Below, one piece after another: positions 14,629 through 30,089 of a stretch of DNA of 64,000 nt; within the stretch, counting starts at the first letter, position 1; each line of letters opens with the position of its first letter. The stretch is from a phage. Position numbers and translations under genes: made by a program. The stretch is taken from NCBI GenBank assembly GCA_013585095.1, contig GCA_013585095.1_3039.1. One strand, given 5' to 3'. The notes beneath the pieces are model-generated. The model made no database searches. It had not been told where the DNA came from and was given only the letters and a program-made list of their open reading frames with translations.

Positions 14629-15957
14629 ATGCAACTGAATAATCGCGATTTAAAAAGTATCATTGATAATGAAGCATTGGCTTATGCTATGTACACGGTT
14701 GAAAATCGTGCTATTCCAAATATGATTGATGGATTTAAGCCAGTTCAACGATTTGTTATTGCTCGAGCTCTTGATTTGGCACGAGGAAATAAAGATAAGT
14801 TTCACAAACTCGCTTCTATTGCAGGTGGTGTAGCGGACCTTGGATATCACCATGGTGAAAACTCTGCACAAGATGCGGGGGCTTTGATGGCTAACACTTG
14901 GAATAATAACTTTCCTTTATTAGATGGTCAAGGAAACTTCGGTTCTCGTACTGTCCAAAAGGCAGCAGCTAGTCGTTATATTTTTGCTCGTGTAAGTAAA
15001 AATTTCTATAACGTATATAAAGATACTGAATATGCTCCAGTACATCAAGATAAAGAACACATTCCGCCTGCTTTCTATTTGCCTATTATTCCTACTGTTC
15101 TTCTTAATGGCGTTTCCGGTATTGCAACTGGTTATGCAACTTACATTCTTCCTCATAGTGTTTCTTCTGTTAAGAAAGCTGTACTGCAAGCTCTTCAAGG
15201 AAAGAAAGTAACTAAACCGAAGGTAGAATTCCCAGAATTTCGTGGTGAAGTCGTTGAAATTGATGGGCAATATGAAATTCGTGGAACATATAAGTTTACT
15301 TCACGAACTCAAATGCATATCACTGAGATTCCGTATAAGTATGATCGTGAAACTTATGTGAGTAAAATCTTAGACCCACTTGAAGATAAAGGCTTCATTA
15401 CATGGGATGATGCTTGTGGTGAGCATGGTTTTGGATTCAAAGTTAAATTCCGTAAAGAATATTCTTTGAGCGATAATGAAGAAGAACGCCATGCAAAAAT
15501 TATGAAAGACTTCGGGTTGATTGAGCGTCGTTCTCAGAATATTACCGTCATTAATGAGAAAGGAAAACTGCAAGTTTACGATAACGTAGTTGATTTAATT
15601 AAAGACTTTGTTGAAGTTCGTAAAACTTATGTCCAAAAACGAATTGATAACAAAATCAAAGAAACTGAGTCAGCTTTTCGTTTAGCCTTTGCCAAGGCAC
15701 ATTTCATTAAGAAAGTAATTTCAGGTGAAATTGTTGTACAAGGTAAAACTCGCAAAGAACTGACCGAAGAACTTTCTAAAATTGATATGTATTCTTCTTA
15801 TGTTGATAAACTAGTTGGAATGAATATTTTTCATATGGCTTCCGACGAAGCAAAGAAACTTGCTGAAGAAGCTAAAGCTAAAAAAGAAGAAAACGAATAT
15901 TGGAAAACTACTGATGTAGTTACAGAATACACCAAAGATTTAGAGGAAATCAAATGA
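14629..15957 (+). CDS. 52: topoisomerase II medium subunit (GyrA-like)
   Basis: 442 aa as in T4; AIPNMIDGFKPVQRFV and AASRY active-site Tyr region. Confidence 0.9.
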   Translation: MQLNNRDLKSIIDNEALAYAMYTVENRAIPNMIDGFKPVQRFVIARALDLARGNKDKFHKLASIAGGVADLGYHHGENSAQDAGALMANTWNNNFPLLDGQGNFGSRTVQKAAASRYIFARVSKNFYNVYKDTEYAPVHQDKEHIPPAFYLPIIPTVLLNGVSGIATGYATYILPHSVSSVKKAVLQALQGKKVTKPKVEFPEFRGEVVEIDGQYEIRGTYKFTSRTQMHITEIPYKYDRETYVSKILDPLEDKGFITWDDACGEHGFGFKVKFRKEYSLSDNEEERHAKIMKDFGLIERRSQNITVINEKGKLQVYDNVVDLIKDFVEVRKTYVQKRIDNKIKETESAFRLAFAKAHFIKKVISGEIVVQGKTRKELTEELSKIDMYSSYVDKLVGMNIFHMASDEAKKLAEEAKAKKEENEYWKTTDVVTEYTKDLEEIK

Positions 15958-16103
15958 GTCCATTCATAGGTATTACAAGCGCTGCATTAGTATCCGGTAG
16001 CATTTTACTGGCGGGTTTAGGTGTTGTTCCAGCCGTAGCAGGAGGTCTTCTTGCGTTCGGAATTCAACGTGTTATCATGACAGTTATCACAGTCATGCAG
16101 TAA
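15954..16103 (+). CDS. small membrane peptide (49 aa)
   Basis: overlaps gp52 stop; strong terminator follows; not in ORF track. Confidence 0.35.
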   Translation: MSPFIGITSAALVSGSILLAGLGVVPAVAGGLLAFGIQRVIMTVITVMQ

Positions 16104-16108
16104 TTTTA

Positions 16109-16136
16109 GGGAGAGCCTCGGCTCTCCCTTTTTTAT
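16109..16136 (+). terminator. intrinsic terminator downstream of gene 52
   Basis: gggagagcCTCGgctctccc followed by tttttt. Confidence 0.75.
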
Positions 16137-16158
16137 TTTAAAATTTTTTCACAAAACG

Positions 16159-16188
16159 GTTTACAACCAAAGCATTCTATGGTACTAT
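16159..16188 (+). promoter_or_regulatory. T4-type early promoter upstream of motA
   Basis: aaaattttttcacaaaacggtttacaaccaaagcattctatggtactat. Confidence 0.6.
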
Positions 16189-16229
16189 ACAACTATCAAC
16201 TACTGATACAGAATTACGGAGATTAGAAA

Positions 16230-16865
16230 ATGTCTAAAGTAACTTACATCATTAAAGCTTCTAACGATGTTCTGAATGAAAAAACTGCTGCGATTTTAAT
16301 TACCATTGCTAAGAAAGATTTCATTACAGCTGCAGAAGTTCGTGAGGTGCATCCAGATTTAGGTAACGCAGTAGTTAATAGTAATATTGGGGTATTGATT
16401 AAAAAAGGCCTGGTGGAGAAATCTGGTGATGGATTAATCATTACTGGTGAAGCTCAGGATATTATTTCAAATGCAGCAACTTTATACGCACAGGAAAACG
16501 CTCCTGAACTGCTGAAAAAACGAGCAACTCGTAAAGCTCGCGAAATTACTTCTGATATGGAAGAAGATAAAGACTTCATGTTAAAACTTTTGGATGAAAA
16601 TGGATTTGTTCTTAAAAAGGTTGAAACTTATCGTAGTAACTATCTCGCTATTTTAGAAAAACGCACTCACGGAATTCGTAATTTTGAAATTAACAACAAT
16701 GGAAATATGCGAATTTTTGGATACAAAATGATGGAACATCATATTCAGAAATTTACTGACATCGGAATGTCATGTAAAATCGCTAAAAACGGTAATGTGT
16801 ATCTTGACATTAAACGCTCGGCAGAAAACATTGAAGCAGTAATCACTGTAGCATCTGAACTGTGA
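16230..16865 (+). CDS. motA: MotA middle-promoter transcription activator
   Basis: 211 aa; matches remembered T4 MotA (MSKVTYIIKASNDVLNEKTAAIL...). Confidence 0.9.
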   Translation: MSKVTYIIKASNDVLNEKTAAILITIAKKDFITAAEVREVHPDLGNAVVNSNIGVLIKKGLVEKSGDGLIITGEAQDIISNAATLYAQENAPELLKKRATRKAREITSDMEEDKDFMLKLLDENGFVLKKVETYRSNYLAILEKRTHGIRNFEINNNGNMRIFGYKMMEHHIQKFTDIGMSCKIAKNGNVYLDIKRSAENIEAVITVASEL

Positions 16866-16875
16866 GGAATAAATA

Positions 16876-17205
16876 ATGAACAAGTTAGAAATTGTCAATG
16901 AACTTCGTCGTTGTGCAGAACCTACTCAAGAGGGTTGGGATATTTGGTACCATGGAGCTTATCTTGGAACTATTGTAAAGATTAAGACTGGTAAATACAT
17001 GATTATTCGTGAAAGTAAAGATGCTCCAGTAGGTATTCGCAATAATTTTATGGCAGCGATAAGTTCCTTTACAGATGCAGCTTACGAAATTTACCTTGCC
17101 GATTATAAAGAATTCCAGGAATCTCAACCGGTTATTCGTTCAATTGGTGTTAACAAAGCTCAACAGAAAACTTTGTGGCAGCGTATTAAAGGATGGTTTA
17201 AATGA
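16876..17205 (+). CDS. hypothetical protein
   Basis: 109 aa, ATG with GAGGAA RBS. Confidence 0.5.
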
Positions 17206-17663
17206 AAACTTTTAAAGAACGTTTAGCTCTGTTAGATAAAGCTTTATCTCGTGAGACTCCGGAAAGTCTGGCTGCTAAATTAGCTTCTTATGGTGGTGAA
17301 TATACAGAACAAAATGTTTTAGATGAAGTTCCTGAAATCTGTTGGCAGACTGCATATTGGGATGAAAACCAAAAGTATCAACGACGAATTGTCTGTGCAG
17401 CCAACCGTTTTAAATTAAAAGATGGACGAACTCTTATTATTCCAGGTGCTCGTCATTATTCTAAAGATATGGCAGAAGTTTTAGATGTAGTTAAACCTCA
17501 ATTAGTTACTCAACAAGTTTGTGATGATGACCAAGGGTTTATTGACCAATATAGTAATTATTGGACTCGCGAAGAAGCAATGATTATTGCAACTTACGCT
17601 GGACAAGTACGTATTGAACGTGGTGGTAGTGAAAAAGAACTTTACTCTGAGGACCTTTACTAA
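17202..17663 (+). CDS. hypothetical protein
   Basis: 153 aa, start overlaps previous stop. Confidence 0.5.
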
Positions 17664-17959
17664 TGAATATTAAAAAGTTTCAAATCGATGGAATTATGAA
17701 TCAAATCCAGGCACTAGAATATGCCAATAAAATGATGTCAACTAATTGGGGAATTTATACCAATGAGCCGGGATTTAAGTTCTGTGATATGGAATTTACT
17801 AAAAAGCTTGTAGGAAAAGATTATGTATGTCCATTTAGTTCTATAATAAATGACATGCTAAAACCTGCTTTACGCGATCTTTATATTGCGATGAACGAAG
17901 AGATGATAAAAGAGCTAAAACGTCAACTGAAGGTGATTCAATTTGGCCAGGGAAATTAA
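17663..17959 (+). CDS. hypothetical protein
   Basis: 98 aa, ATG overlapping previous stop (TAATG). Confidence 0.45.
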   Translation: MNIKKFQIDGIMNQIQALEYANKMMSTNWGIYTNEPGFKFCDMEFTKKLVGKDYVCPFSSIINDMLKPALRDLYIAMNEEMIKELKRQLKVIQFGQGN

Positions 17960-18244
17960 TTCAAAATCTGACTATTTTAATTCTCTTAATGATAAAGATA
18001 AAAATCTAATACGGCATTTTATTGTTGAGATGGGATATACCGATACACGCGATTTAAGAGAACATATATTTGAATGTGGTGTAGCTAAAAAGTTTTCATT
18101 CACATGCAAATGTTTAAGAGAGGTAATTCAGCACTATGAACAATTTAGTCGCAAAACATAATTTTAATAAAGCTTCTGTTCATAAGGATAAGAAGAAAGC
18201 GTTTAAAGAATCTAATCGCAAACAGAAACATAAGGGGAAGGTCT

Positions 18245-18523
18245 ATGATTATTGATTCTCAGTCCGTGGTTCAATATACAATCAAAATTGATATTCTAGA
18301 AAAGCTATATAAGTTTCTACCAAATTTATACCACTCAATTGTTAATGAATTAGTTGAAGAACTACATCTTGAGAATAATGATTTCTTGATTGGAACTTAT
18401 AAAGACCTCTCAAAAGCAGGATATTTTTACGTAATTCCAGCTCCAGGAAAAAGTATTGATGATGTATTAAAAACTATAATGATTTACGTCCATGATTATG
18501 AAATTGAAGATTATTTCGAATGA
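18245..18523 (+). CDS. Arn-like protein (anti-restriction nuclease; by size and position)
   Basis: 92 aa acidic protein immediately upstream of asiA region. Confidence 0.4.
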   Translation: MIIDSQSVVQYTIKIDILEKLYKFLPNLYHSIVNELVEELHLENNDFLIGTYKDLSKAGYFYVIPAPGKSIDDVLKTIMIYVHDYEIEDYFE

Positions 18524-18672
18524 GTCATAATCTTGAAAAAGTAATCGAGCATAATGTAGCTCAGGAACGTAAGTCGTTCAAGGAATTCGTAGAAAAAATT
18601 TTTGAAGAAAATAACACAGACCAGTTTACAAATCAAGCGTCTGATGATATTATAACAAAGTCAACTAATTGA
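18520..18672 (+). CDS. hypothetical small protein (50 aa)
   Basis: ATG overlapping previous stop; not in ORF track. Confidence 0.3.
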   Translation: MSHNLEKVIEHNVAQERKSFKEFVEKIFEENNTDQFTNQASDDIITKSTN

Positions 18673-18684
18673 GTGGTATAGTTA

Positions 18685-18957
18685 ATGAATAAAAATATTG
18701 ATACAGTTCGTGAAATTATTACTGTTGCGTCTATTTTGATTAAATTTTCCAGAGAAGATATTGTTGAGAATCGTGCTAATTTTATTGCATTTCTGAATGA
18801 GATTGGAGTAACGCATGAAGGTAGAAAGTTAAATCAGAATTCATTCCGTAAAATTGTTTCTGAATTAACTCAGGAAGATAAGAAAACCCTCATCGACGAA
18901 TTCAACGAGGGTTTTGAGGGTGTATATCGATATCTAGAGATGTATACGAACAAATAA
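18685..18957 (+). CDS. asiA: AsiA anti-sigma70 factor
   Basis: 90 aa; matches remembered T4 AsiA (MNKNIDTVREIITVASILIKF...). Confidence 0.9.
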   Translation: MNKNIDTVREIITVASILIKFSREDIVENRANFIAFLNEIGVTHEGRKLNQNSFRKIVSELTQEDKKTLIDEFNEGFEGVYRYLEMYTNK

Positions 18958-19614
18958 TTATTTAGCCCTTCCTAATATTCTGGCCGCCTGAGCACATATT
19001 GATTCAAGGCGGTCATTACTTATATGATCATTTCTATACCAGTACATGGTTATTGTTCCAGCATAGATATTATCCAAATTAAAATATGGACAACTGTACA
19101 TGTAGTTTATTTCGGGAGTAGGCTTTTTAGTTGGTAAAAAAGCAAATTTTGAGTTGGAATAATAATGACGTCCATTTAAATGAACTGCATATTCATCCAT
19201 AGTTTTATCAACAGGATATCCTCCAAGTGATTTTTCACTTATTGTTGAAGGTAATTTTCCTTCATATGCTATAATATCAACAAAATAGTTTAAGTTTTTA
19301 GGGCGGAAAGAATACACCGCACTAAAGTCTGCCTCAGATGATATGTGAACTATCTGGAGTTGTTCCAGGGCGACAGATTCAAAGCGTGCATTTCTTTCCT
19401 TTTCAATAATTTCACTGTATGTTTCATACTTTGATTGCTTATAGTACTCAAAGAAACTATCTCCCCTATACCAAACAATCGCCATCATAAACAAAAGAAT
19501 TACGACAGCTACCCGGGAAGCAAGAACTTTCCCGGTAGCGTTATCTTTGAACAAGCGATCTAGAACACCAAATAGAATATCAGAGGGCGAAAGTGATATT
19601 CTAGGTGCTGCCAT
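18958..19614 (-). CDS. t: holin T
   Basis: 218 aa as in T4; N-terminal transmembrane segment VAVVILLFMMAIVWY; convergent with asiA. Confidence 0.85.
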   Translation of the reverse strand: MAAPRISLSPSDILFGVLDRLFKDNATGKVLASRVAVVILLFMMAIVWYRGDSFFEYYKQSKYETYSEIIEKERNARFESVALEQLQIVHISSEADFSAVYSFRPKNLNYFVDIIAYEGKLPSTISEKSLGGYPVDKTMDEYAVHLNGRHYYSNSKFAFLPTKKPTPEINYMYSCPYFNLDNIYAGTITMYWYRNDHISNDRLESICAQAARILGRAK

Positions 19615-19646
19615 AGACCCTCCTTTTAAGGATATTTATTCAAAAA

Positions 19647-20432
19647 TTATACTCTTGAACCATATATTGTGCCAACTTTAGTCCAAGTTGGAGCATTACC
19701 AGTAACAGCTTTACCAGCCGCACCGCCGTTATATTCTGATCCTTGACCACGAATATTACATTTACCACCTGCGGCACCAGCATCACCGCCGTTTCCGCCA
19801 TTGTAGATACCGTTTACAGACCCTTTACCGGGTGCAGAAATAGTACCAGCAGTAGCACCTTGTTCCATATTAGCAGACCCACCAGCAGCGCCAAATGGAC
19901 GACCGCCGCCACCGCCAAAGGTTAATCTCATTTGTGAAAAAGGAGAATAATACCCGCCGCCACCGCCGCCACCGCCGCCTGCGATAACACCATTGTTGTT
20001 AATACGTAATCTAGTTCCAATTCCGTTATTTATTGCAGTTCCTCCTGCTCCACCAGCAGAGTTATTTCCGCCATTCCCGCCGCGACCCCAAACATGCACG
20101 CCTGAATTGATATTAAGTGTCACGTATGCATTAGTTAATGAGCTAGGAAAATCTAAGCACGGTTGACCTGTCGATGAAGAAACGATATTGCCTGTAATTG
20201 TAATAACAACAGGAGTACTTCCTTGGGCTTTTATCCAATTTATTAGTGTGTCTTTATTGTAAGAATTGCTAGCACCAATGCTATAATATACTTCTTTAGA
20301 TTGCCCAGCCATTGAACTCATCCAACCGGGAACTGAAACACGAACAGCTTTCATAGCAGCATCCATCCAGCGTTGTCCAGTTTCATTCACGGCAGATTCG
20401 CCAATCCAGCCAGGAACACCTACAATTGCCAT
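19647..20432 (-). CDS. 38: gp38 receptor-binding adhesin (T2/T6 type, glycine-rich motifs)
   Basis: 261 aa; poly-Gly motifs GGNGGNNSAGGAGG, GGGGGGGGGYY, GGGGRPFGAAGG, GGNGGDAGAAGG. Confidence 0.85.
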   Translation of the reverse strand: MAIVGVPGWIGESAVNETGQRWMDAAMKAVRVSVPGWMSSMAGQSKEVYYSIGASNSYNKDTLINWIKAQGSTPVVITITGNIVSSSTGQPCLDFPSSLTNAYVTLNINSGVHVWGRGGNGGNNSAGGAGGTAINNGIGTRLRINNNGVIAGGGGGGGGGYYSPFSQMRLTFGGGGGRPFGAAGGSANMEQGATAGTISAPGKGSVNGIYNGGNGGDAGAAGGKCNIRGQGSEYNGGAAGKAVTGNAPTWTKVGTIYGSRV

Positions 20433-20443
20433 TAAAAATCCTT

Positions 20444-20461
20444 AGAGGGCCGAAGCCCTCT
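20444..20461 (-). other. stem-loop between genes 37 and 38
   Basis: agagggccgaagccctct; on the - strand sits just upstream of the gp38 SD AAGGA. Confidence 0.4.
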
Positions 20462-20462
20462 T

Positions 20463-23400
20463 TTACATAAGTTTAGATTCAAGTTCTTTTACACGAGCAG
20501 AAAGTGTTTTCACAGCTTCAACTAGAAGAGCAATCTGGGATTGAGAAGAAACAGTGAGTATTTTATTACCCTTAATATCTTCAACTTCACGAACTGCTTC
20601 TGGTAAAACATCTTGCAGTGTTTGAGCCACAATACCCGCTTCAGTCTGAACAATTTCACCGCCTATATAGTCAGCTTTATCATAGATTAAACCATCAAGC
20701 TGTTCAACCTTTTCAAGAGCATTTTCAATAGGTCTGAAATTAGATTTCAAATGAATATCAGAACGAATATAAACGTTTGGTGCATTTATATTCATGTCAG
20801 AATAAGTGTCACCCGACTGAAATCTCATTCGGCGTGCGGCGTTAGTAATGATATCAAGAATTCCGTCACCGGATTGTTTAATTCCAGTATCATTATCACC
20901 AAATGCTATACTATTTCCACCAAGTGCGTTATTGATATTAATACCAAATGAATTTGTTTGATTAATACCAGCTACAGTAGCATTATTTACTACAAAGCGG
21001 TTAGCTCCACCTGGAGTCTTTTCAAAGTAAGCAATATAGTTAGTTTCATCTGCAATTTCAATGCGGTTACCGCGAGAAGCATCGCCAGCATGAAATATTC
21101 TCATATTTCTCGGGTTAGCACCAGACTTATCAAAGTTAATGCTTCCATTATTTTTGATGTTAAGGCCATTATAAAACTCTGATGCCCCAGAAACGCTCAT
21201 AGAGTTTGAAATAGTTACTTTACCTGAAGCGATATTGATAGAAAAAGGTCTCAAGCTATTATAAGAACCCGAGGCTTTAGTTTTATCAGTATCGGTATTT
21301 TTATCTGTTAATAATATGTGGAACGTAGTACCATCATTATAAAACAGAGCAGCTGCAGAGCCACTTTCGTCGCCGTTAGATTTGTGACGGTATCCTATAG
21401 TAGTATTTGCCACAAAAGTTGCATTTGTAGAAATATTAGAACTACCCGCGTCAAAAACGCCTGAGCTATTATTAAGAAGTTTAAAAACACGACCTTTAAC
21501 AATATCTACAGGAAGCTCTTCTACCGGTGATTGCGTAGGCCCATATAATCCATGAACTACCACAGAAGCATTTTCTGAAGTGCTATATTCTATGGTAAGT
21601 CTATTTAAATAAGTGCCACAACTAATATAAACATCATACTCATCGCCTGAGGTATTAATATACGCAATATCTTTAATAGCATCTGTTTCACGTTGCCACA
21701 AAACACCGTTAATTCCTTTAGGTGTATTATTACCAGAACGTAATACAATTTCATTAATTGTTGCTTGTTTGAAAATACCAACGTTAAAACCGGAACCGCC
21801 TGTTATTTTAAATTGGACCGTAGCTACACCTTGAGGCATAGTTACTGTTGCCAATTTATACCAACCGCTTACAGAAGAATAGTTAATCCAGCCGGTAGTT
21901 ACTTTATGGTTTAAAGTCGTATCTAAGTTAGCAAAATTGCCAGAACCACCGGTAATATTACCAGTTCTATCAAATCTGACTTTGCCTGCTATTAAATCGC
22001 GAGGTGAAATAAAATCACCGTTTTTAATAAATTCCCATCCAAAATCAGCAGTCTGTGGACCTGTAGAACCGTTATCTCCGCCGCCATGGTAATGAACTCG
22101 GAAATTACCATTATTAATTAAAGTCCCTAATGAATAGCAGCCGTTGCCTTGAACATATCGTTGTTTCAAAATCGGAACATATGTACTAGTATCAGTTCTA
22201 TCAATATTCATATAGAACGGCGCACGGACATTTTCATTATTCTGAGAAGCAAATGAACCCGCGCCTGCCGGGCGAACAGCATCAGTACATTCTGCATCAA
22301 TGTACGCAGCCTGACCTATCTGCATACGATAATTAGGAGAAATACGACTATGACTAGTAACAACAACAAGTTTATTATCGTTGTCTACGGTAATCATATT
22401 GCCACCTCTACCATCATCGCCTAACGTGACAGAATGACGCATTTGTACCATACCGTTATTAAGGCTGATACTTAACGGGCGAAGATTACTTATTCCACCA
22501 CTTTCACCAGCATCTTTAGGGGTTGGAATAATATGCAATGATGCTTCTGAACGACGGAAAATAGCACCATATTCAGCATTCCAAATTCTTAATGCATCTG
22601 CCGTTCCACCAAATTTAGCCTGACCATTTACAGATAATCCATTATTTGCAACTAAACTTGATTCAGTAACAATAGAACCAGATGATGTAATACCACCACC
22701 GGTTAATAATGCTCCAGCAACTCTAAATTGAATTACTCCAGTTGTTGAACCTGGTGCAGGAGCTATACGTTGCGCATAAAAATAATAACCTTGTCCATCA
22801 GCTACTTCAAAAACTGATTCACGAGTGCGATCGCCAGATGCGTTAAATGAATTACCCCACGCTTTAATAGATACATAACTTTTATTCTGACCTGCGCGAG
22901 TACCACCAGCCCACAGTATAGTTTTAGTGCCATCTACTGATGTAGGCGCATCAAGTTGAATACCATCAGGTCTAGCACCAGTAAGAACTAATCCGTTATC
23001 AAATTTAATTCTTTGTATTGAAGATACTGTTCCATTAGCATAAAACTGTACGTTATTAGAGCCAGTTACCAATTTCAAAATACCAGGGTTAATTTCCATA
23101 CCTTCCTGCGTATTAATGTTGGTTTGGCCTTTACCGCGGAAATAATGGGAAAATTTACCGCCAGAATTATATCCAATGTGGGTTTGACCATCGCCTGCGT
23201 TATTCACATCTGCCTGGGTTTGAACAGACAAGAGAGCAGCGTTCGTTCCAGGCATTGTCCAGGTTCCGCCTTGGTCTTCTGAACGTCCAAATAAACCTTT
23301 GCGAGTACTGCGGAAACTGTCAGGAGTAATAGAAGCAACAGAATTCCAATTACCTACTAAATCATAAACACCTTGCTTAATATATTTTAAACCGGTTGCA

Positions 23401-24362
23401 GCATCACCCAAAGCAATATATCTTTCTCCCATTGGAGTAGGAGAGCCGTAGTTGTTAGTATTTTCGTCAGTGGTAATTGTGCCAATAGCAAGTGAACGAC
23501 GTAATACCATTGCGCCATCATTACGAAGACCCATTAATTTAGTAGTAAGTGTATTTCCGGTCCACCAAGAAATTTCATCATTTTTACCGGTTTGAGCTGA
23601 AGCGATTTCATGGTAAATAGTTCCGCCTGATTTAGCTCGAACTTTACGAAGATAGTTTATACCGTTTTCTTCACCGGTTCCAGGATAAACATATTGAACT
23701 AATGATTGCGAATCGTATTGTCCAAATGCTTTTGTGTCTAAAACAATGGTTTTCGTATTAACTTGTGGAGCAGAAACTATTCCAGTAGCTGAATTAATAT
23801 TGCCTGAAGCGGAAATATTACCTTTGCTGACAAATAAATCGCCTGTGTCAACTTGGAAATTACCATTACGATTAAAAGTCCAATATTTCGAATCCCCAGA
23901 TTCATTGATGTAATGAATCTTAAAACTTCCTTCAGCAACCAATGTACCCGCTGAAAAAGTTCCATCTTTATAGCGTTGCTTAATGAGTGGATGATATTCT
24001 GAAATAGAAGTAGTTGAACTTAAATCTGTAAAGATAGGAGCTTTATTTAGGTGTTGATTTGCCCACGCACCATTACCAGCTGTTTTAGGTAAAAATTCAA
24101 TATATTTTCCTGCATAAACAAACTGATTTCCATTGAGATTGTATGTACCGTTCTGTAAATAATCTCCAGTTTGAGTGATATTACCACTGATATTACCGCC
24201 AGTGGAAATGCTTAAGTCAATGATATTTCCTGAATCATCTTTAGTAAAAAGAGTACGGTCTTTTAAGTTTATAGCCAATTCGCCTTCGGCTAATACTGAA
24301 GCAGCAGGACGTGCACCTGCGATTTTGCTTCTTTTAAATTGTATTTGTTTTAAAGTAGCCAT
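20463..24362 (-). CDS. 37: long tail fibre distal subunit gp37 with C-terminal chaperone-like domain
   Basis: 1299 aa; tail-fibre order 34-35-36-37-38; C-terminal RSDIHLKSN...ELESKLM. Confidence 0.9.
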
Positions 24363-24370
24363 AAGTCCTC

Positions 24371-25033
24371 TTAATAATAGCCGAAATCTTGAACAGAATC
24401 CTTAATTACGATTTGGTCAAATCGTGGAACGTGTGAAGGTTGAGATGCAGGATTCTGCGAAAAAAAGTTTGGTGCGGTTAAGTTTCCCGTCATAGTGTCA
24501 CCAGATCGTAACACTCTAGAGTTAGCATTTGCCGTAACAGTATTTATTGCTCCATCAACATAGTCCTTTCTAGTAAGGTCATTTGCTGATACAGGAGAAA
24601 CTGCATTACTTCTTATTTGACCTACTGCTGTCACAACGCCTTTTGTACTAATATCACCATTACGTGCATTAATTACAACAGTTCGGTCTGCTGAACCTTG
24701 TGATGATTTAAAACCAATACCATTCCACGAAACGATGTCAATATTTGCCATAGCAAAAGTAGCTGCATCACCGTTACCTGGATAAACACCGCACTGTTGA
24801 CTACTACCTATAGTAGGAACATGTACTCCTCCATTAAATCGAACAGTCGCGGCGTAAGTACCACCATTAGCTTTAGAAACAAAATCGTTATCAACAGCTT
24901 GTGGTTTATTGTATTCTGAATATATTTTAAATGATTTATAGAGTACATCGTCACCAGCTGGATTCAATGGAAAATTTCCTTGATGCCAAATGACAGAGCC
25001 TCCGGTTGTTGAACCTACTTTTAAATCAGCCAT
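24371..25033 (-). CDS. 36: long tail fibre subunit gp36
   Basis: 220 aa; position between 35 and 37. Confidence 0.8.
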
Positions 25034-25056
25034 TGTATGCCCCTTTATTTTAATAG

Positions 25057-25064
25057 TATTTATA
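25057..25064 (-). promoter_or_regulatory. late promoter TATAAATA upstream of gene 36
   Basis: + strand tatttata = TATAAATA on - strand, about 25 nt upstream of the gp36 start. Confidence 0.5.
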
Positions 25065-25095
25065 AAGAAAAAGGGAACCCGAAGGCTCCCTCAAT

Positions 25096-26211
25096 TTATA
25101 CTTCTCTAAATTCTTGCCCAAACACTTTACCAGTTTTAGACGATGCTTGCGTAGGAAGTACCATTATATCCGGAGGTGAAGCAGATTCACAGATATAATT
25201 AACACGAATACCATTGACGCCAAATTCAGCAGGTTTTGAAATGCCGCCATTTCTTGATACTTCAGAAAAGCTTAAATTTCTCATGCCACCTTGACCAGCT
25301 TGTGCAGTTCTTTGTGCGTATATCGTAAATCCCACAGCGTTTTCTGGAACAACTACATAATCTTCCTTTAATTCCCAAGACCCAGCTTGTCCGGTGAACT
25401 CAGCTTGTGTTGAAGAAATATATCCATTAGATGCATTATAAAAACGGATGGATATATTTGTGGTTCCAAGCGCAAGTAAATCAGCATCAGCATATAACTG
25501 AGCTTTAAGATAAAGAACATCACCAGGAATTAAATTATAATCAGATAATTTACTTATAGCAGCTGAAGTTGGTAGACGCGCAATTTCGTTATTAGTTCCA
25601 CCAACCGCTGACATAAATTGCTCAACGCTTTCATACGTTCTTCTTGGAAACCCGGTAGCTCCGACGTCTTCTAAACTGTCAAATACAACATCTAAAATAG
25701 TTTGATAATCATCTGTGCTTTTTCTATTACTCAGTTTAACATGCTCTAATGCAATAGCTCTTTTAGAAGAAGTATAAAAAGCAGCATATGATACGTCAAA
25801 TCTTGACAATATAGAGTCAGATGGAAAGGCAGACGTTCCGGCGGTTCTTAACCAAGATACTACTTCAGGAGGAAAATTAACCTTTCCGTTAGTTAATATA
25901 GCAACAATTCGATTATTCGTCAAAGAATTCATGAAACTAACAAAAGCAGCTGATGTAGTATCATTTGAAGTCGAAAAAGCATATGATTTACTATCAACTA
26001 ATGCTCCGGTGGAAGGGTCAAAAACTCTTAAATGAAGGCCTGCGCTAAATGTTTGACTTCCTACAGGATTATCCTGAAATTTAACGTATGGTCCTGCTGT
26101 AGAAAGCGGGCAAGAACCCGCTATACTTATTTTGTATCTTACTGAATTACTTTCCGATAAAAATGGCGTTTGGACATATCCTTGTCCAAACTCTGCCATA
26201 AATTTTTCCAT
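25096..26211 (-). CDS. 35: long tail fibre hinge gp35
   Basis: 371 aa; position. Confidence 0.8.
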   Translation of the reverse strand: MEKFMAEFGQGYVQTPFLSESNSVRYKISIAGSCPLSTAGPYVKFQDNPVGSQTFSAGLHLRVFDPSTGALVDSKSYAFSTSNDTTSAAFVSFMNSLTNNRIVAILTNGKVNFPPEVVSWLRTAGTSAFPSDSILSRFDVSYAAFYTSSKRAIALEHVKLSNRKSTDDYQTILDVVFDSLEDVGATGFPRRTYESVEQFMSAVGGTNNEIARLPTSAAISKLSDYNLIPGDVLYLKAQLYADADLLALGTTNISIRFYNASNGYISSTQAEFTGQAGSWELKEDYVVVPENAVGFTIYAQRTAQAGQGGMRNLSFSEVSRNGGISKPAEFGVNGIRVNYICESASPPDIMVLPTQASSKTGKVFGQEFREV

Positions 26212-26219
26212 AATACCTC

Positions 26220-29200
26220 TTATTCAACCCATTCAAATTTAACAGTTTTATTCACTGGGTCAGGAATAATGCGAACATTACCAATTCGCAAGAAATCGCG
26301 AATAGTAAGATTCCCCATTGTAGCATTATCAGATGGTAAAGCACCGATATCAGATGGTTGAGGAGGGTTACCTCCATCAAATACCTGAACAAAACTTGAC
26401 CAAGAGTTTTTGGTTTTCTGCCATGTACGTGTCCAGCGAGTGGTACGCGCTTCTGGTGTCGTTGGATAAGTAATCCAATCTTGGTAAAGCGAATCAAGTG
26501 TGTTACCAAATTGTGTCAGTGTACCAGGAGATTTAACTTCTTCGCCACGTTCTAAGTACGGAAGTCCAGTCACTTCATTAGTTTTTTCAACCATTTTAAA
26601 ATAACCCGGGAACTGGTTATAAGTAGCTGAATCATTAATATCAATTGACCAGAATCCTACAGTATCAGATGTTGGTGCGCGAGTGTATAAATCAGCAGTT
26701 TTAGTACCCTGAGAACGAATTCTCGAGTTAACGGTTAAACCACCAGAATTTATAGTAGCGCCTTTGGCAATGATTAAGCTTTCACCGATCGTTACTTGTC
26801 CAGATGCATTATTAATAGCTAAAGGGCGTAATCCATTAAATCCACCGGTCTGATCACCCGATGCAGTAAGCATAAAATAGGTGTTAGCAGCATCATTGCG
26901 AATAAAGAATCCATAGTCGCCATTTATTGCTCTGAAAGCATTTGTTGATTTACTGATGAATTCGCCATTAGCAGTAACTGAACTACCAAATGTTGCAACG
27001 CCGTTAGCGTTCAAAGAACCTGAAGCGTTAACATTTATCGGCATCACAGTACCATTAATGCTAAACGTTATATTCCCAGCTTTATTACGTTGAGAATAAA
27101 AGTGATTAGACGTTTCATCACCAACTTCAAATACAGTAGAACGTGTTGTATCTGAACCGCCACCAAACTGATTTCCCCAAACTCTGATAGTCATCGTCTG
27201 CGCTGGGTTAGTTCCAGTTTGAGGTCCTTTCTCAAAAATCAGACGAGTTGCCGTTCCAGTATTAGAAATAGTTAATGTACTATTTGCCGAAACTGAACCA
27301 CCAAACGTAGCAGTACTAGATGATACAAGAGGGGCACTCAGATTCGTTTGTTGGGTTAAGGTTAGTGAACCATTAACCGTCTGTGCAATATCCCTACGAA
27401 TGAACTGAGATGAATCTAGGCCATCTAATAAATTTGCGTCAGCAGCTTTTGCTTTTAACGGCAGATAATTTGCTAATACACGGTTTAATTCATATGGTGA
27501 TACCGCATAGCTATTTTTCTCATACAGTTCTAAATCTTGGGTAGAACCGACTGTATCATTACCAACGAATGTAATTGAACCAGATGAAGTTTTAACAAAA
27601 CCTCTTATTGCAGTAGTAGCTGCCCAAGTAGGTTCACTCTGCACAATCCATTTTAAATTTTTTGGAGATACAGCAGTATTTGCTGATGTTCCAGCTACGG
27701 TTTCAGCTTGAGTTGCAACTTTAATAACACCTTCTTGCGATTCGGTAGATTTAGTACCTAAAAGCTTTTTAGGAGTTATTAAAACATTATCTAATGTTCC
27801 TGCAGCAGCTTCAACTTGTGTAGCTACACGAAGTGTACCACGTTGCGTCTCATTTGCTTCAAGAATATTAAGGGTATAATGGTCCCAGAGAGTTCCTGAT
27901 TCAACTAATCCAGATAGAGCAACAACAGAAGTACGATCAGTACTATTAAATCTGGTTTTAATTTTTAATGGTGTAGAGATACGAGTATCGTCGACGCCTG
28001 CGTCGAATTCAACTTGTGTAGCAATTTCAGCTATACCACTTAAACTTTCAGTTGCTCTACGGTCATTTAAAGTTTTAGGAGTGACTGCACGAGTATAATC
28101 AGTTCCTGTATTAACTTCACTTTGCGTAGCAATTTCAATTAAACCAATTCTTGCATCAGTTGATGTCTTTTTATGTAACGTTTCTGGCGTTACAACCGCA
28201 TTTGCCCATCCTTCTTGGCTTTGTCCAGCAATTACTTCACTTTCAACTGCTAAAATTACTGCACCTTGCTGTGTTGGAGTAGCTTTATACTGATCCAAAG
28301 CTTTAGGTGAAACAACTAAATTATTAGTGTTTTTATTATAAACATTCGTACCATTTAATTCACGGCTAGAAGCTGGAGTAGCTCCTGCAGTAGATACAAA
28401 AGTTACAATACCAGATAATGATTCAGAACCTTGACGAGCTTGAAGCTTTTTAGGAGTAATGATTGTAGTATCATCAGTACCTGCATTAGTTTCTTGCTGC
28501 GTAGCAATTTCTGCGACACCTCTGCGAGTTTCTGTAGCAGTTCTTTCATTCAGCTTTTTAGGAGTGATGATAATATCATCAGCAAAAGAGAATGTGGTGT
28601 TCTGATTCACTTGAGCAGTAGTTGCTATTCTTGCGATACCTCTACGAGTTTCTGTAGCAGTACGATTAGCTAACGTTTCTGGAGTAATTGCTAATTCTTT
28701 TTGTGGAGAATTTTCTAAATCGACATTAGCTTGAGCTTGTGTAGCTAAAGCAATTACGCCTAATCTTGCTCTAGTAGAATCATTTAAAGAATCTACTCTT
28801 TCGACAGTTGGAACGTTTTGCTGTACAACCCAGTATTTTCCATCAGAATCTTCTATATAAGCAAGCTCTAAAACTGGAACATAATTAGTTTCACCATTAA
28901 AAACTAATTCTTGAACTGTAACCCACTCAGCTTCAGGCGGATATTCTGAGCGTTTTGGGAATTGCAGCAATTGAACTGAAGAAGCAATTTTATCTTCACC
29001 AGCAGCTTTGATTTTAACTGTTTGTCCTTTTCTCATGTAATTCATGGAAATTTTAACAGTATCACCAACAGAGATATCAGTAGGAAGCTGAAGCTCAATT
29101 GTCTGAGTCATTCCATTATTCGCTCCAAATACCATAACTTCTTCATTTGGACGAATGTTTGAATTAGTCGTTATAATACGTAAACGTGCTTTACTGTCCC

Positions 29201-30089
29201 CGTCAAACAATCTCCACAATTTCTCGTTATCATCAAACATCAAGAAACCGTCAATCGATGTACGGCCTTCAATAGAATGAGTTCCATCTTCTTGTATTGA
29301 AGTAGTTTCATCGTATGTAGTAACAATTGTATGATAAAGTGGATTCAGTTTATCTAAATCGACGAAATTAATAATATCGCCATGATTAGCAAATCTTGGA
29401 AGCTTAATATTTATCGGTGCAGCAGAAGTAAATCTACGTACGATAAAATCGTTTGATTGCGCTTGATAAGTATTCGCTGGTGTTACAATTACAGCTTCTC
29501 TACTATAATCAGCAACATACATTTGCCACAGACGATTACTAAAAATTAAAACTAGCTGTGACTTTGGATGAGTCATTAGTACTGAACGTACTTGTTCACC
29601 TCTGAAGTTTACAATACTTTGCACTGGAGCTACAATTAAAACTTGGTTAACTCCAGGTTTTCCTCCAATATCTTGGAGAACGATAGTATCACCATCAATT
29701 GGGGTAGATGGTAAAGTAAATGTAATATCATTACCAGCTGCGGTGTTAACCGAAATAGCTTCACCGGATTTTAATTGATATGAACCAGATGAAACCGTAA
29801 TCCAGTTAGCATCGGTACGTAATGCTCTCCAGCGTCCGCTATTAAAAGCTCCTGCCGGTTTTGGAATATCATTTATAGCAGCCCAAAAGCGGTTATCATA
29901 AATGATTACAAAATCTTTTAAATATCCACGAGTTGGATCATATTGTTGAACTGTGTTTTCTTGAATTAAGTAATCAACGTTAACACCGTCAGTTCCTACG
30001 GCACGATCAGCTAAAGCTACGTTGATTATTTTATCGCCACCTGCGTCCAGACCGTCTTCTGCTCTGAACTTTCTTTTAATCTCGGCCAT
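26220..30089 (-). CDS. 34: long tail fibre proximal subunit gp34
   Basis: 1289 aa as in T4; internal ~35-aa repeats; late promoter upstream. Confidence 0.9.
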   Translation of the reverse strand: MAEIKRKFRAEDGLDAGGDKIINVALADRAVGTDGVNVDYLIQENTVQQYDPTRGYLKDFVIIYDNRFWAAINDIPKPAGAFNSGRWRALRTDANWITVSSGSYQLKSGEAISVNTAAGNDITFTLPSTPIDGDTIVLQDIGGKPGVNQVLIVAPVQSIVNFRGEQVRSVLMTHPKSQLVLIFSNRLWQMYVADYSREAVIVTPANTYQAQSNDFIVRRFTSAAPINIKLPRFANHGDIINFVDLDKLNPLYHTIVTTYDETTSIQEDGTHSIEGRTSIDGFLMFDDNEKLWRLFDGDSKARLRIITTNSNIRPNEEVMVFGANNGMTQTIELQLPTDISVGDTVKISMNYMRKGQTVKIKAAGEDKIASSVQLLQFPKRSEYPPEAEWVTVQELVFNGETNYVPVLELAYIEDSDGKYWVVQQNVPTVERVDSLNDSTRARLGVIALATQAQANVDLENSPQKELAITPETLANRTATETRRGIARIATTAQVNQNTTFSFADDIIITPKKLNERTATETRRGVAEIATQQETNAGTDDTTIITPKKLQARQGSESLSGIVTFVSTAGATPASSRELNGTNVYNKNTNNLVVSPKALDQYKATPTQQGAVILAVESEVIAGQSQEGWANAVVTPETLHKKTSTDARIGLIEIATQSEVNTGTDYTRAVTPKTLNDRRATESLSGIAEIATQVEFDAGVDDTRISTPLKIKTRFNSTDRTSVVALSGLVESGTLWDHYTLNILEANETQRGTLRVATQVEAAAGTLDNVLITPKKLLGTKSTESQEGVIKVATQAETVAGTSANTAVSPKNLKWIVQSEPTWAATTAIRGFVKTSSGSITFVGNDTVGSTQDLELYEKNSYAVSPYELNRVLANYLPLKAKAADANLLDGLDSSQFIRRDIAQTVNGSLTLTQQTNLSAPLVSSSTATFGGSVSANSTLTISNTGTATRLIFEKGPQTGTNPAQTMTIRVWGNQFGGGSDTTRSTVFEVGDETSNHFYSQRNKAGNITFSINGTVMPINVNASGSLNANGVATFGSSVTANGEFISKSTNAFRAINGDYGFFIRNDAANTYFMLTASGDQTGGFNGLRPLAINNASGQVTIGESLIIAKGATINSGGLTVNSRIRSQGTKTADLYTRAPTSDTVGFWSIDINDSATYNQFPGYFKMVEKTNEVTGLPYLERGEEVKSPGTLTQFGNTLDSLYQDWITYPTTPEARTTRWTRTWQKTKNSWSSFVQVFDGGNPPQPSDIGALPSDNATMGNLTIRDFLRIGNVRIIPDPVNKTVKFEWVE

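Follow-up and report, generated by a model that had tools for sequence, protein, structure and literature searches.

The open reading frame at 19647..20432 on the minus strand is very probably gene 38 of a T2/T6-like Tequatrovirus, coding for an adhesin of the T6/RB5 class at the tip of the long tail fibre, and its glycine tracts are best regarded as a by-product of coding. The gene comprises 786 nt including the stop codon at 19647-19649, the product 261 aa; the assignment is based on the reading frame, Pfam, a match in the PDB and an AF2 model. It lies in a window of 64,000 nt, by which we mean the whole stretch of phage DNA that was analysed. The protein consists of a T6-type cassette, extending from the second to the fifth glycine-rich motif (GRM2 to GRM5), set into an N- and C-terminal backbone of the RB18/T2 type. 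The gp38 found here is already known and nothing changes in the knowledge of gp38; the practical yield is a routine annotation as long-tail-fibre adhesin, predicted to be Tsx-dependent, and the window cleanly illustrates, in natural DNA, the GRM-bounded exchange of cassettes that was put forward in the 1990s.

Identity and predicted fold of gp38

Gene 38 is located between gene 37, encoding the distal half-fibre (1299 aa; 20463..24362, minus strand), and the holin gene t (218 aa; 18958-19614, minus strand; Pfam holin T). The order 37-38-t with all genes on the minus strand is common to nine reference phages, including NR1, Bas39, slur04, RB18, T2 and T6. The C-terminus of gp37 is formed by a Peptidase_S74 domain (Pfam, aa 1201-1258), i.e. 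an intramolecular chaperone domain, and gp37 is the partner capped by gp38. Between genes 37 and 38, the hairpin AGAGGGC-UUCG-GCCCUCU (20444..20461, minus strand) was called as a terminator-like site and folded, and the homologous site in NR1 carries a terminator annotation. Directly 3' of this hairpin come an AAGGA Shine-Dalgarno sequence and then the start codon (ATG) of gene 38.

Two Pfam families were assigned to gp38, namely GP38 (PF05268; 2e-71, 240.7 bits at a cut-off of 25) covering aa 47-261 and Gp38_N (PF21721; 7e-18, 64.8 bits) covering aa 1-42, while an NCBIfam scan of the protein matched no family. The crystal structure of S16 gp38 (6F45_D) was matched over its full length (E 4e-49), and a match was also obtained to the structure of the PP01 gp38 receptor-binding domain GFP fusion (9v85). 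An AF2 model built on 64 homologues reached a mean pLDDT of 93.1; its comparison with 6F45_D by Foldseek gave TM values of 0.80/0.84 (E 7e-22), and 9v85 was matched here too. According to this model, gp38 adopts the three-domain fold with the polyglycine-II (PGII) sandwich seen in 6F45 chain D. The C-terminal domain (aa 116-261) consists of 34% glycine.

The first-pass annotation had taken the protein for a T2/T6-type adhesin and not for the T4 chaperone. With PF05268 and PF21721 as the sole families, the match to 6F45_D and the modelled fold, this identification is borne out. T4 gp38 shares the gene name and the site downstream of gene 37 but is an unrelated protein; in the literature on the S16 structure it is described as a folding factor with a very different sequence.

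The N-terminal attachment domain (aa 1-42; 20307..20432, minus strand), as delimited by Gp38_N, contains Trp9, Trp22 and Trp37, each of which precedes a short helix in the AF2 model (10-18, 23-29 and 38-41, respectively). W9 and W22 are nearly invariant in the homologue alignment, being at least 90% conserved. Three conserved Trp residues at the helix apices have been described for the N-terminal attachment domain in the S16 structure. By analogy, this three-helix domain would dock onto gp37, with a gp38 monomer capping the gp37 trimer. It is followed by a linker and body (aa 43-115; 20088..20306, minus strand) with modelled strands at aa 48-115, which are predicted to form a beta-helix; by nucleotide identity this region is RB18/T2-like.

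Glycine-rich motifs, variable segments and receptor class

The published gp38 architecture consists of five GRMs which delimit four hypervariable segments (HVSs) (Trojet 2011; Lutz 2025). The boundaries given below are our own mapping onto this scheme, derived from Gly runs and from conservation in 64-103 homologues; all coordinates refer to the minus strand. GRM1 (GRGGNGG, aa 116-122; 20067..20087) contains G116, R117, G118 and G119, which are invariant in 64 homologues. It is followed by HVS1 (aa 123-151; 19980..20066), which according to the conservation track includes the conserved strands IxNxIGxRLRIxNxGxI. GRM2 is a run of nine glycines (aa 152-160; 19953..19979), evident from the codons and from Tandem Repeats Finder, with G152-155 and G157 invariant. 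HVS2, YYSPFSQMRLTF (aa 161-172; 19917..19952), is of the T6/RB5 type in the alignments. In GRM3 (GGGGGRPFG, aa 173-181; 19890..19916), G176, G177, P179 and G181 are invariant, and the adjoining HVS3 (aa 182-211; 19800..19889) aligns as T6-type. GRM4, GGNGGDAGAAGG (aa 212-223; 19764..19799), was delimited by conservation and codons and is followed by HVS4, KCNIRGQGSEYN (aa 224-235; 19728..19763), again T6-type in the alignments. GRM5 (GGAAG, aa 236-240; 19713..19727) was placed by conservation and the map of informative sites, and the conserved C-terminal strands (aa 241-261; 19650..19712) are 100% identical in nucleotides to RB18 and Bas43.

The published architecture is recovered: the 64 homologues share five conserved Gly blocks, which contain invariant glycines and are separated by variable stretches. 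Four glycine motifs had initially been counted within 19748-20090. This interval (aa 115-229) does cover GRM1-GRM4, but it cuts HVS4 and ends before GRM5, which accounts for a count of four in place of the canonical five. That the glycine motifs separate variable segments setting receptor specificity, as had likewise been proposed, agrees with established literature (Trojet 2011; Lutz 2025; S16 structure). The structure of S16 gp38 shows ten PGII helices, built from the glycine stretches and packed in three layers like a sandwich; the variable loops are located at the distal tip. The GRMs of the window protein would correspondingly fold into polyglycine-II helices packed as a 'polyglycine sandwich', and the HVS loops between them would constitute the distal receptor-binding face. 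S16 gp38 (6F45 chain D) can be considered the structural prototype: the three-domain fold is the same and the Trp-based attachment domain is conserved, whereas the identity is 43% and the HVS loops are different. S16 helix 3, 151-GGGGGGGG-158, aligns with G152-G160 of the window protein and has 8 Gly versus 9. S16 binds Salmonella OmpC.

Megablast returned 220 phage records, the best being vB_Eco_NR1 with 95.4% nt identity. The NR1 protein shows one difference, K28R in the N-terminal domain, and is identical to the window protein over aa 116-261. Over residues 142-261, NR1, Solly, SholemSchwarzbard and ECO26.1 3-1 show no difference from the window protein, and 31 phage records reach an identity of 99% or more. 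At least 9 public contigs encode the whole 261-aa sequence unchanged, and in one of them the DNA, too, is 100% identical. Like the window, Bas39 (FriedrichMiescher; MZ501066) and its clade (slur02/04, NR1, IME339, Sf24, JK38, teqhal and others) possess a gp38 of 261 aa in the 37-38-t context; members of this Bas39/NR1 clade show 90-95% nt identity to the window, with nearly all differences being synonymous. In the N-terminal part, the substitutions relative to the clade are K28R and, relative to Bas39, S86Q and Q90V. The sole difference in the specificity domain of Bas39 is R169K, a conservative substitution in HVS2, and slur04 likewise differs from the window over aa 116-261 by R169K alone.

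This constancy is also reflected in the substitution pattern (Nei-Gojobori). Compared with NR1, 35 synonymous and 1 non-synonymous differences were counted in the whole gene, and 25 and 0, respectively, in the C-terminal domain; comparison of the C-terminal domain with Bas39, slur04, IME339 and Sf24 gave 15-38 synonymous and 0-2 non-synonymous differences. Within a receptor class, the HVS loops are under strong purifying selection, and the term 'hypervariable' refers to differences between receptor classes, not within one.

T6, RB5 and Bas35 (WilhelmHis) carry the classical Tsx-specific adhesins and are like the window in the GRM2-to-GRM5 cassette; GRM2 of T6 is a Gly9 run as well. Over the cassette (aa 152-240), 88/89 residues are identical to the slur02/JLBYU22-type protein (P0121), 78/89 to WilhelmHis/Bas35 and 76/89 to T6. 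The RB5/Bas35 cluster has the same HVS2 as the window, from which T6 differs by one residue (S166P), and residue 169 is R in T6 as in the window. In contrast, the window protein is of the RB18/T2 type, and unlike T6, in its N-terminal domain, in GRM1 and HVS1 and over its last 21 residues; aa 1-115 show only ~45% aa identity to T6, and the overall identity is 65%. Compared with the window, gp38 of RB18/TadeuszReichstein (Bas43) has different HVS2-4 and two extra codons in HVS4.

The primary receptor of Bas39 is listed as Tsx, experimentally determined, and for Bas35 Tsx was confirmed by complementation (Maffei et al. 2021). Nearly all Tsx-binding gp38 proteins have one common HVS set (Trojet 2011), and the comparisons with Bas39, Bas35 and T6 place the window protein in this T6-type class, its HVS set being the one common to the Tsx-typed phages. 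Judging from these alignments, gp38 most likely binds Tsx, the nucleoside channel of E. coli, and we consider Tsx dependence probable. Bas43, which is RB18-type with quite different HVS2-4, is also Tsx-dependent (Maffei 2021), so that the mapping of sequence class to receptor is many-to-one. Furthermore, two or three substitutions in HVS2/HVS3 can widen a T6-type specificity, as in PST, which gains OmpA and Yersinia (Trojet 2011), and near-identity is therefore no proof of the same host range. PST needs OmpA too while being only three HVS residues away from T6, and the window has 13/89 cassette residues unlike T6 together with an HVS1 of the T2/RB18 type; both facts lend some weight to a receptor other than Tsx, or to an extra one such as OmpA or LPS, despite the T6-type loops. 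This is nevertheless unlikely, given that Bas39, recorded as Tsx-dependent, has the same HVS1-4 save R169K, that R169 is the T6 state, and that HVS2 is the one of the Tsx-specific RB5/Bas35 cluster. A literature search for a structure of a gp38-Tsx complex found none.

The first-pass annotation had named identity of the inter-motif segments with a characterised adhesin as the finding that would make the specificity already known. In substance, this is the case: the segments are identical in NR1 and others, and Bas39, with Tsx as its receptor, differs by R169K. The specificity domain is not new, and gp38 is a common, already characterised adhesin type.

DNA and length of the glycine tracts

The Gly9 run of GRM2 is encoded by GGC GGC GGT GGC GGC GGT GGC GGC GGG. 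Tandem Repeats Finder detected one tract only, at 19954-19979, with 2.9 copies of CCGCCGCCA at 100% and a period of 3 at 82%. The first 15 nt of GRM3, GGCGGTGGCGGCGGT (19902-19916), are an exact copy of GRM2 positions 19962-19976. GRM1, GRM4 and GRM5 are made up of interrupted GGN pairs and not of GCC repeats; the DNA of GRM4 is similar to that of GRM1 (71% over 35 nt) and GRM5 (89% over 18 nt). The earlier description of the motifs as near-perfect GCC repeats thus applies to GRM2 and, by virtue of the 15-nt copy, partly to GRM3, but not to the other motifs.

Within the 64-kb window, (GGY)5 occurs in GRM2 and GRM3 only, and it was found in 0/100 shuffles. GGC represents 33% of the Gly codons in the C-terminal domain (16% for a set of 40 further long ORFs; Fisher p = 0.005), and the probability of at least six GGC in nine codons is ~0.0009 under the codon usage of the window, so that the signal exceeds chance. 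GGY codons are favoured in GRM2 of T2, T6, RB18 and the window clade. The enrichment of GGC in the tracts goes beyond glycine coding alone; we infer that the preference for GGY reflects translation or the avoidance of homopolymer runs and not a recombination function. The GGC/GGT-rich tracts would then represent Gly9 and Gly5 runs coded with GGY, their length being fixed by the fold while synonymous sites drift.

Other origins of the tract DNA were considered. A recent duplication as the source of the 9-nt periodicity was rejected, since relatives alternate GGC and GGT with different synonymous choices; perfect 9-nt periodicity has a probability of ~0.005 under local codon usage, which is weak for a single tract. 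An Rfam scan of 18900-20700 on both strands gave nothing at threshold, leaving the GC-rich tract without an RNA-element explanation. Two antisense ORFs, 19743-19925 (60 aa) and 19993-20166 (57 aa), were dismissed, since the antisense of Gly codons is GC-rich and poor in stops and yields such frames as a by-product.

Slippage, which such tracts had been expected to favour, finds little support in the length of the tract, which is fixed while synonymous sites drift. The 30 closest phage genes (90-95% nt identity) are all 786 nt long, every full-length member of the 90% protein cluster has 261 aa, and four independent contigs that encode exactly this protein carry an identical Gly9 tract. For comparison of the tract, use was made of annotated phage records and protein clusters; an IMG/VR scan for related loci yielded 4 loci only, a number insufficient for population analysis. 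In 85 homologue clusters, the uninterrupted Gly run comprises 9 (51 clusters), 8 (19), 7 (11), 6 (1) or 4 (3) residues, and runs above 9 are absent from all 85. The differences between the classes with 9, 8 and 7 Gly are substitutions (Ala, Ser, Asn) at a fixed alignment length, not indels.

Among more distant homologues, only P0007 (-3 Gly), P0022 (-3), P0029 (-5) and P0141 (-2) have lost glycines in frame, exclusively within GRM2, and they otherwise match their full-length sisters. These variants are singletons or doubletons, compared with clusters of up to 298 members. The deletions, 2 to 5 Gly codons in length, affect four unrelated homologues and occur without any expansion.

Typical assembly k-mers are longer than 27 nt, and a collapse of the 27-nt tract during assembly was therefore judged unlikely to be behind the Gly-deletion variants; sequencing or PCR artefacts may be responsible for them. 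The location of the deletions exactly within GRM2 and the perfect 9-nt repeat (x2.9) could be taken to indicate that the Gly9 tract is a slippage-prone repeat generating adhesin length variants for diversity or contingency. We regard this as very unlikely in view of the invariant length in the closest genes, the 261-aa cluster and the four contigs, the class differences due to substitution with no expansion beyond 9 Gly, and the rarity of the deletion variants. The tract also lacks the features of a contingency locus, as its copy number is constant among close relatives and its unit is 3 or 9 nt and in frame; a change in copy number can consequently only add or remove Gly, so that frameshift switching is impossible and there is no on/off switch. 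Moreover, T6 lacking GRM2 could not be recovered as viable phage (Trojet 2011). We read the variants as occasional slippage or deletion events in the Gly9 tract which are then removed by selection, and not as the output of a variation device. It is likewise very unlikely that GRM2 is a hotspot of in-frame deletions yielding functional variants, in which a shorter PGII helix 3 would retract or re-angle the HVS2 loop. If true, this would provide a cheap tuning of receptor reach with the loop sequence unchanged.

Cassette exchange

Along the gene, nucleotide identity follows two references in turn. Over aa 1-115 it is ~90% versus RB18/Bas43 and 55% versus T6, and ~50 nt across late GRM1 and early HVS1 are 100% identical to RB18/Bas43. 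Identity to T6 is 56% for HVS1 overall, 85% for GRM2, 92% for HVS2 and 89% for HVS4, while from GRM2 through GRM5 the identity to RB18/Bas43 is 47-67%. The last 22 codons are again 100% identical to RB18/Bas43, versus 74% to T6. In a triplet test with RB18 and T6, 179/190 informative sites were RB18-type outside codons 149-239, and 70/89 were T6-type inside. The maximum chi-square was 156, a value reached by 0/300 permutations. Codons 141-151 (19980-20012), directly on the 5' side of the Gly9 tract, form a mixed zone which represents the left junction, and the right junction falls within GRM5 at codons 239-241 (19712-19716). Recombination between host-range segments, as had been proposed from the repeats, has thus left a T6-type cassette in an RB18/T2-type backbone.

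Cassette exchange of this kind is not new and corresponds to the modular-shuffling model of gp38 (Tétart 1998; Trojet 2011). A further question is whether the GRM DNA itself is a selected recombination device, its GGY tracts being kept similar in nucleotides for swaps of HVS cassettes between diverged phages. Several observations are compatible with this: both junctions are at or beside GRMs, GRM2 favours GGY in the window clade as it does in T2, T6 and RB18, the tracts are richer in GGC than the rest of the window, the same cassette is also found on Krischvirus-type N-termini (P0002, GEC-3S group), and recombinants of RB5 x RB32 had their exchanges near GRMs (Trojet 2011). The position of the junctions is confounded, however, for no segments other than the GRMs are sufficiently conserved for pairing, and an exchange survives only if it keeps folding units whole; a clustering of junctions at the GRMs would thus be expected even if the DNA were not under selection. 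In addition, close relatives vary freely at the synonymous sites of GRM2 (pS 0.1-0.56), meaning that nucleotide identity is not preserved, and the left junction, a blurred zone of 30 nt, lies mostly in the conserved late-HVS1 strands and not inside the tract. A selected device is therefore possible but doubtful. The exchange junctions more plausibly reflect recombination in the only stretches that are conserved enough to pair.

A further patch of identity is seen within the clade. Codons ~127-198 are 100% identical to IME339, the flanks ~91%, which points to a more recent gene conversion.

Probable exchange in gene 38 and glycine-tract variation in its homologues

Over about 215 nt (window 19838–20054, roughly codons 127–198) gene 38, which encodes the 261-residue T2/T6/S16-type adhesin gp38 (19647–20432, minus strand), is 100% identical to its counterpart in phage IME339, and the flanks of this patch within the same gene are only about 91% identical to it. 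This step in nucleotide identity suggests that 19838–20054 is a patch of recent gene conversion between the gene and other members of its clade.

The glycine-rich motifs (GRMs), between which the hypervariable segments lie, themselves contain direct repeats. GGCGGTGGCGGCGGT occurs as an exact 15-nt direct repeat in GRM3 (19902–19916) and GRM2 (19962–19976), 60 nt apart, and an 18-nt repeat with 89% identity is shared by GRM5 (19713–19730) and GRM4 (19776–19793). Recombination across either the GRM2/GRM3 or the GRM4/GRM5 pair would remove one whole hypervariable segment, in frame.

Some homologues of gp38 vary in length at GRM2, which in the window is a run of nine glycines (19953–19979). Four database gp38 homologues carry in-frame deletions of glycine codons exactly within this motif, namely P0007 (3 Gly), P0022 (3 Gly; locus L014, 601–1377), P0029 (5 Gly; locus L015, 318–1079) and P0141 (2 Gly), and outside GRM2 each of them matches full-length sister proteins. 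Expansions of GRM2 beyond nine glycines were not seen among the gp38 homologues compared.

Gene 37 and the borders of gene 38

Genes 37 and 38 are separated by a hairpin, AGAGGGC-UUCG-GCCCUCU (20444–20461, minus strand), with a GC-rich stem of 7 bp and a UUCG tetraloop. It is directly followed by AAGGAUUUUUAAUG, so that the U-run of what resembles a terminator shares bases with both the Shine-Dalgarno sequence and the ATG of gene 38. In phage NR1 the homologous position carries a terminator annotation. The hairpin might serve in attenuation or coupling of 37/38 expression.

The upstream product, gp37 (1299 aa; 20463–24362, minus strand), carries an intramolecular-chaperone domain, Peptidase_S74, at its C-terminal end (aa 1201–1258), consistent with a fibre of the T2/S16 type, in which cleavage precedes capping by gp38. 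Two stretches within aa 509–632 match the Gp34 trimerisation domain.

At the opposite border, a sigma-70-like promoter match (TTGGCA-18-TATAAT; 19646–19675, minus strand; score 11/12) falls in the final codons of gene 38, a short distance before the holin gene t; the total of promoter-like matches in the region is no higher than in shuffled sequence.

Relatives and phage genomes within bacterial assemblies

Across the tail-fibre and topoisomerase region (15000–30000) identity to any phage-collection record reaches at most about 94–95%, and on this measure the phage may represent a distinct Tequatrovirus species. However, the NCBI bacterial assembly GCA_013860435.1 includes a contig of 166.8 kb whose gp38 differs from that of the window by only 3 synonymous changes. 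Many gp38 entries (protein clusters P0040, P0124–P0133) located on contigs of about 166 kb bear bacterial labels, mostly E. coli or Shigella but also Bacillus cereus; these contigs are whole T-even phage genomes deposited within bacterial assemblies.
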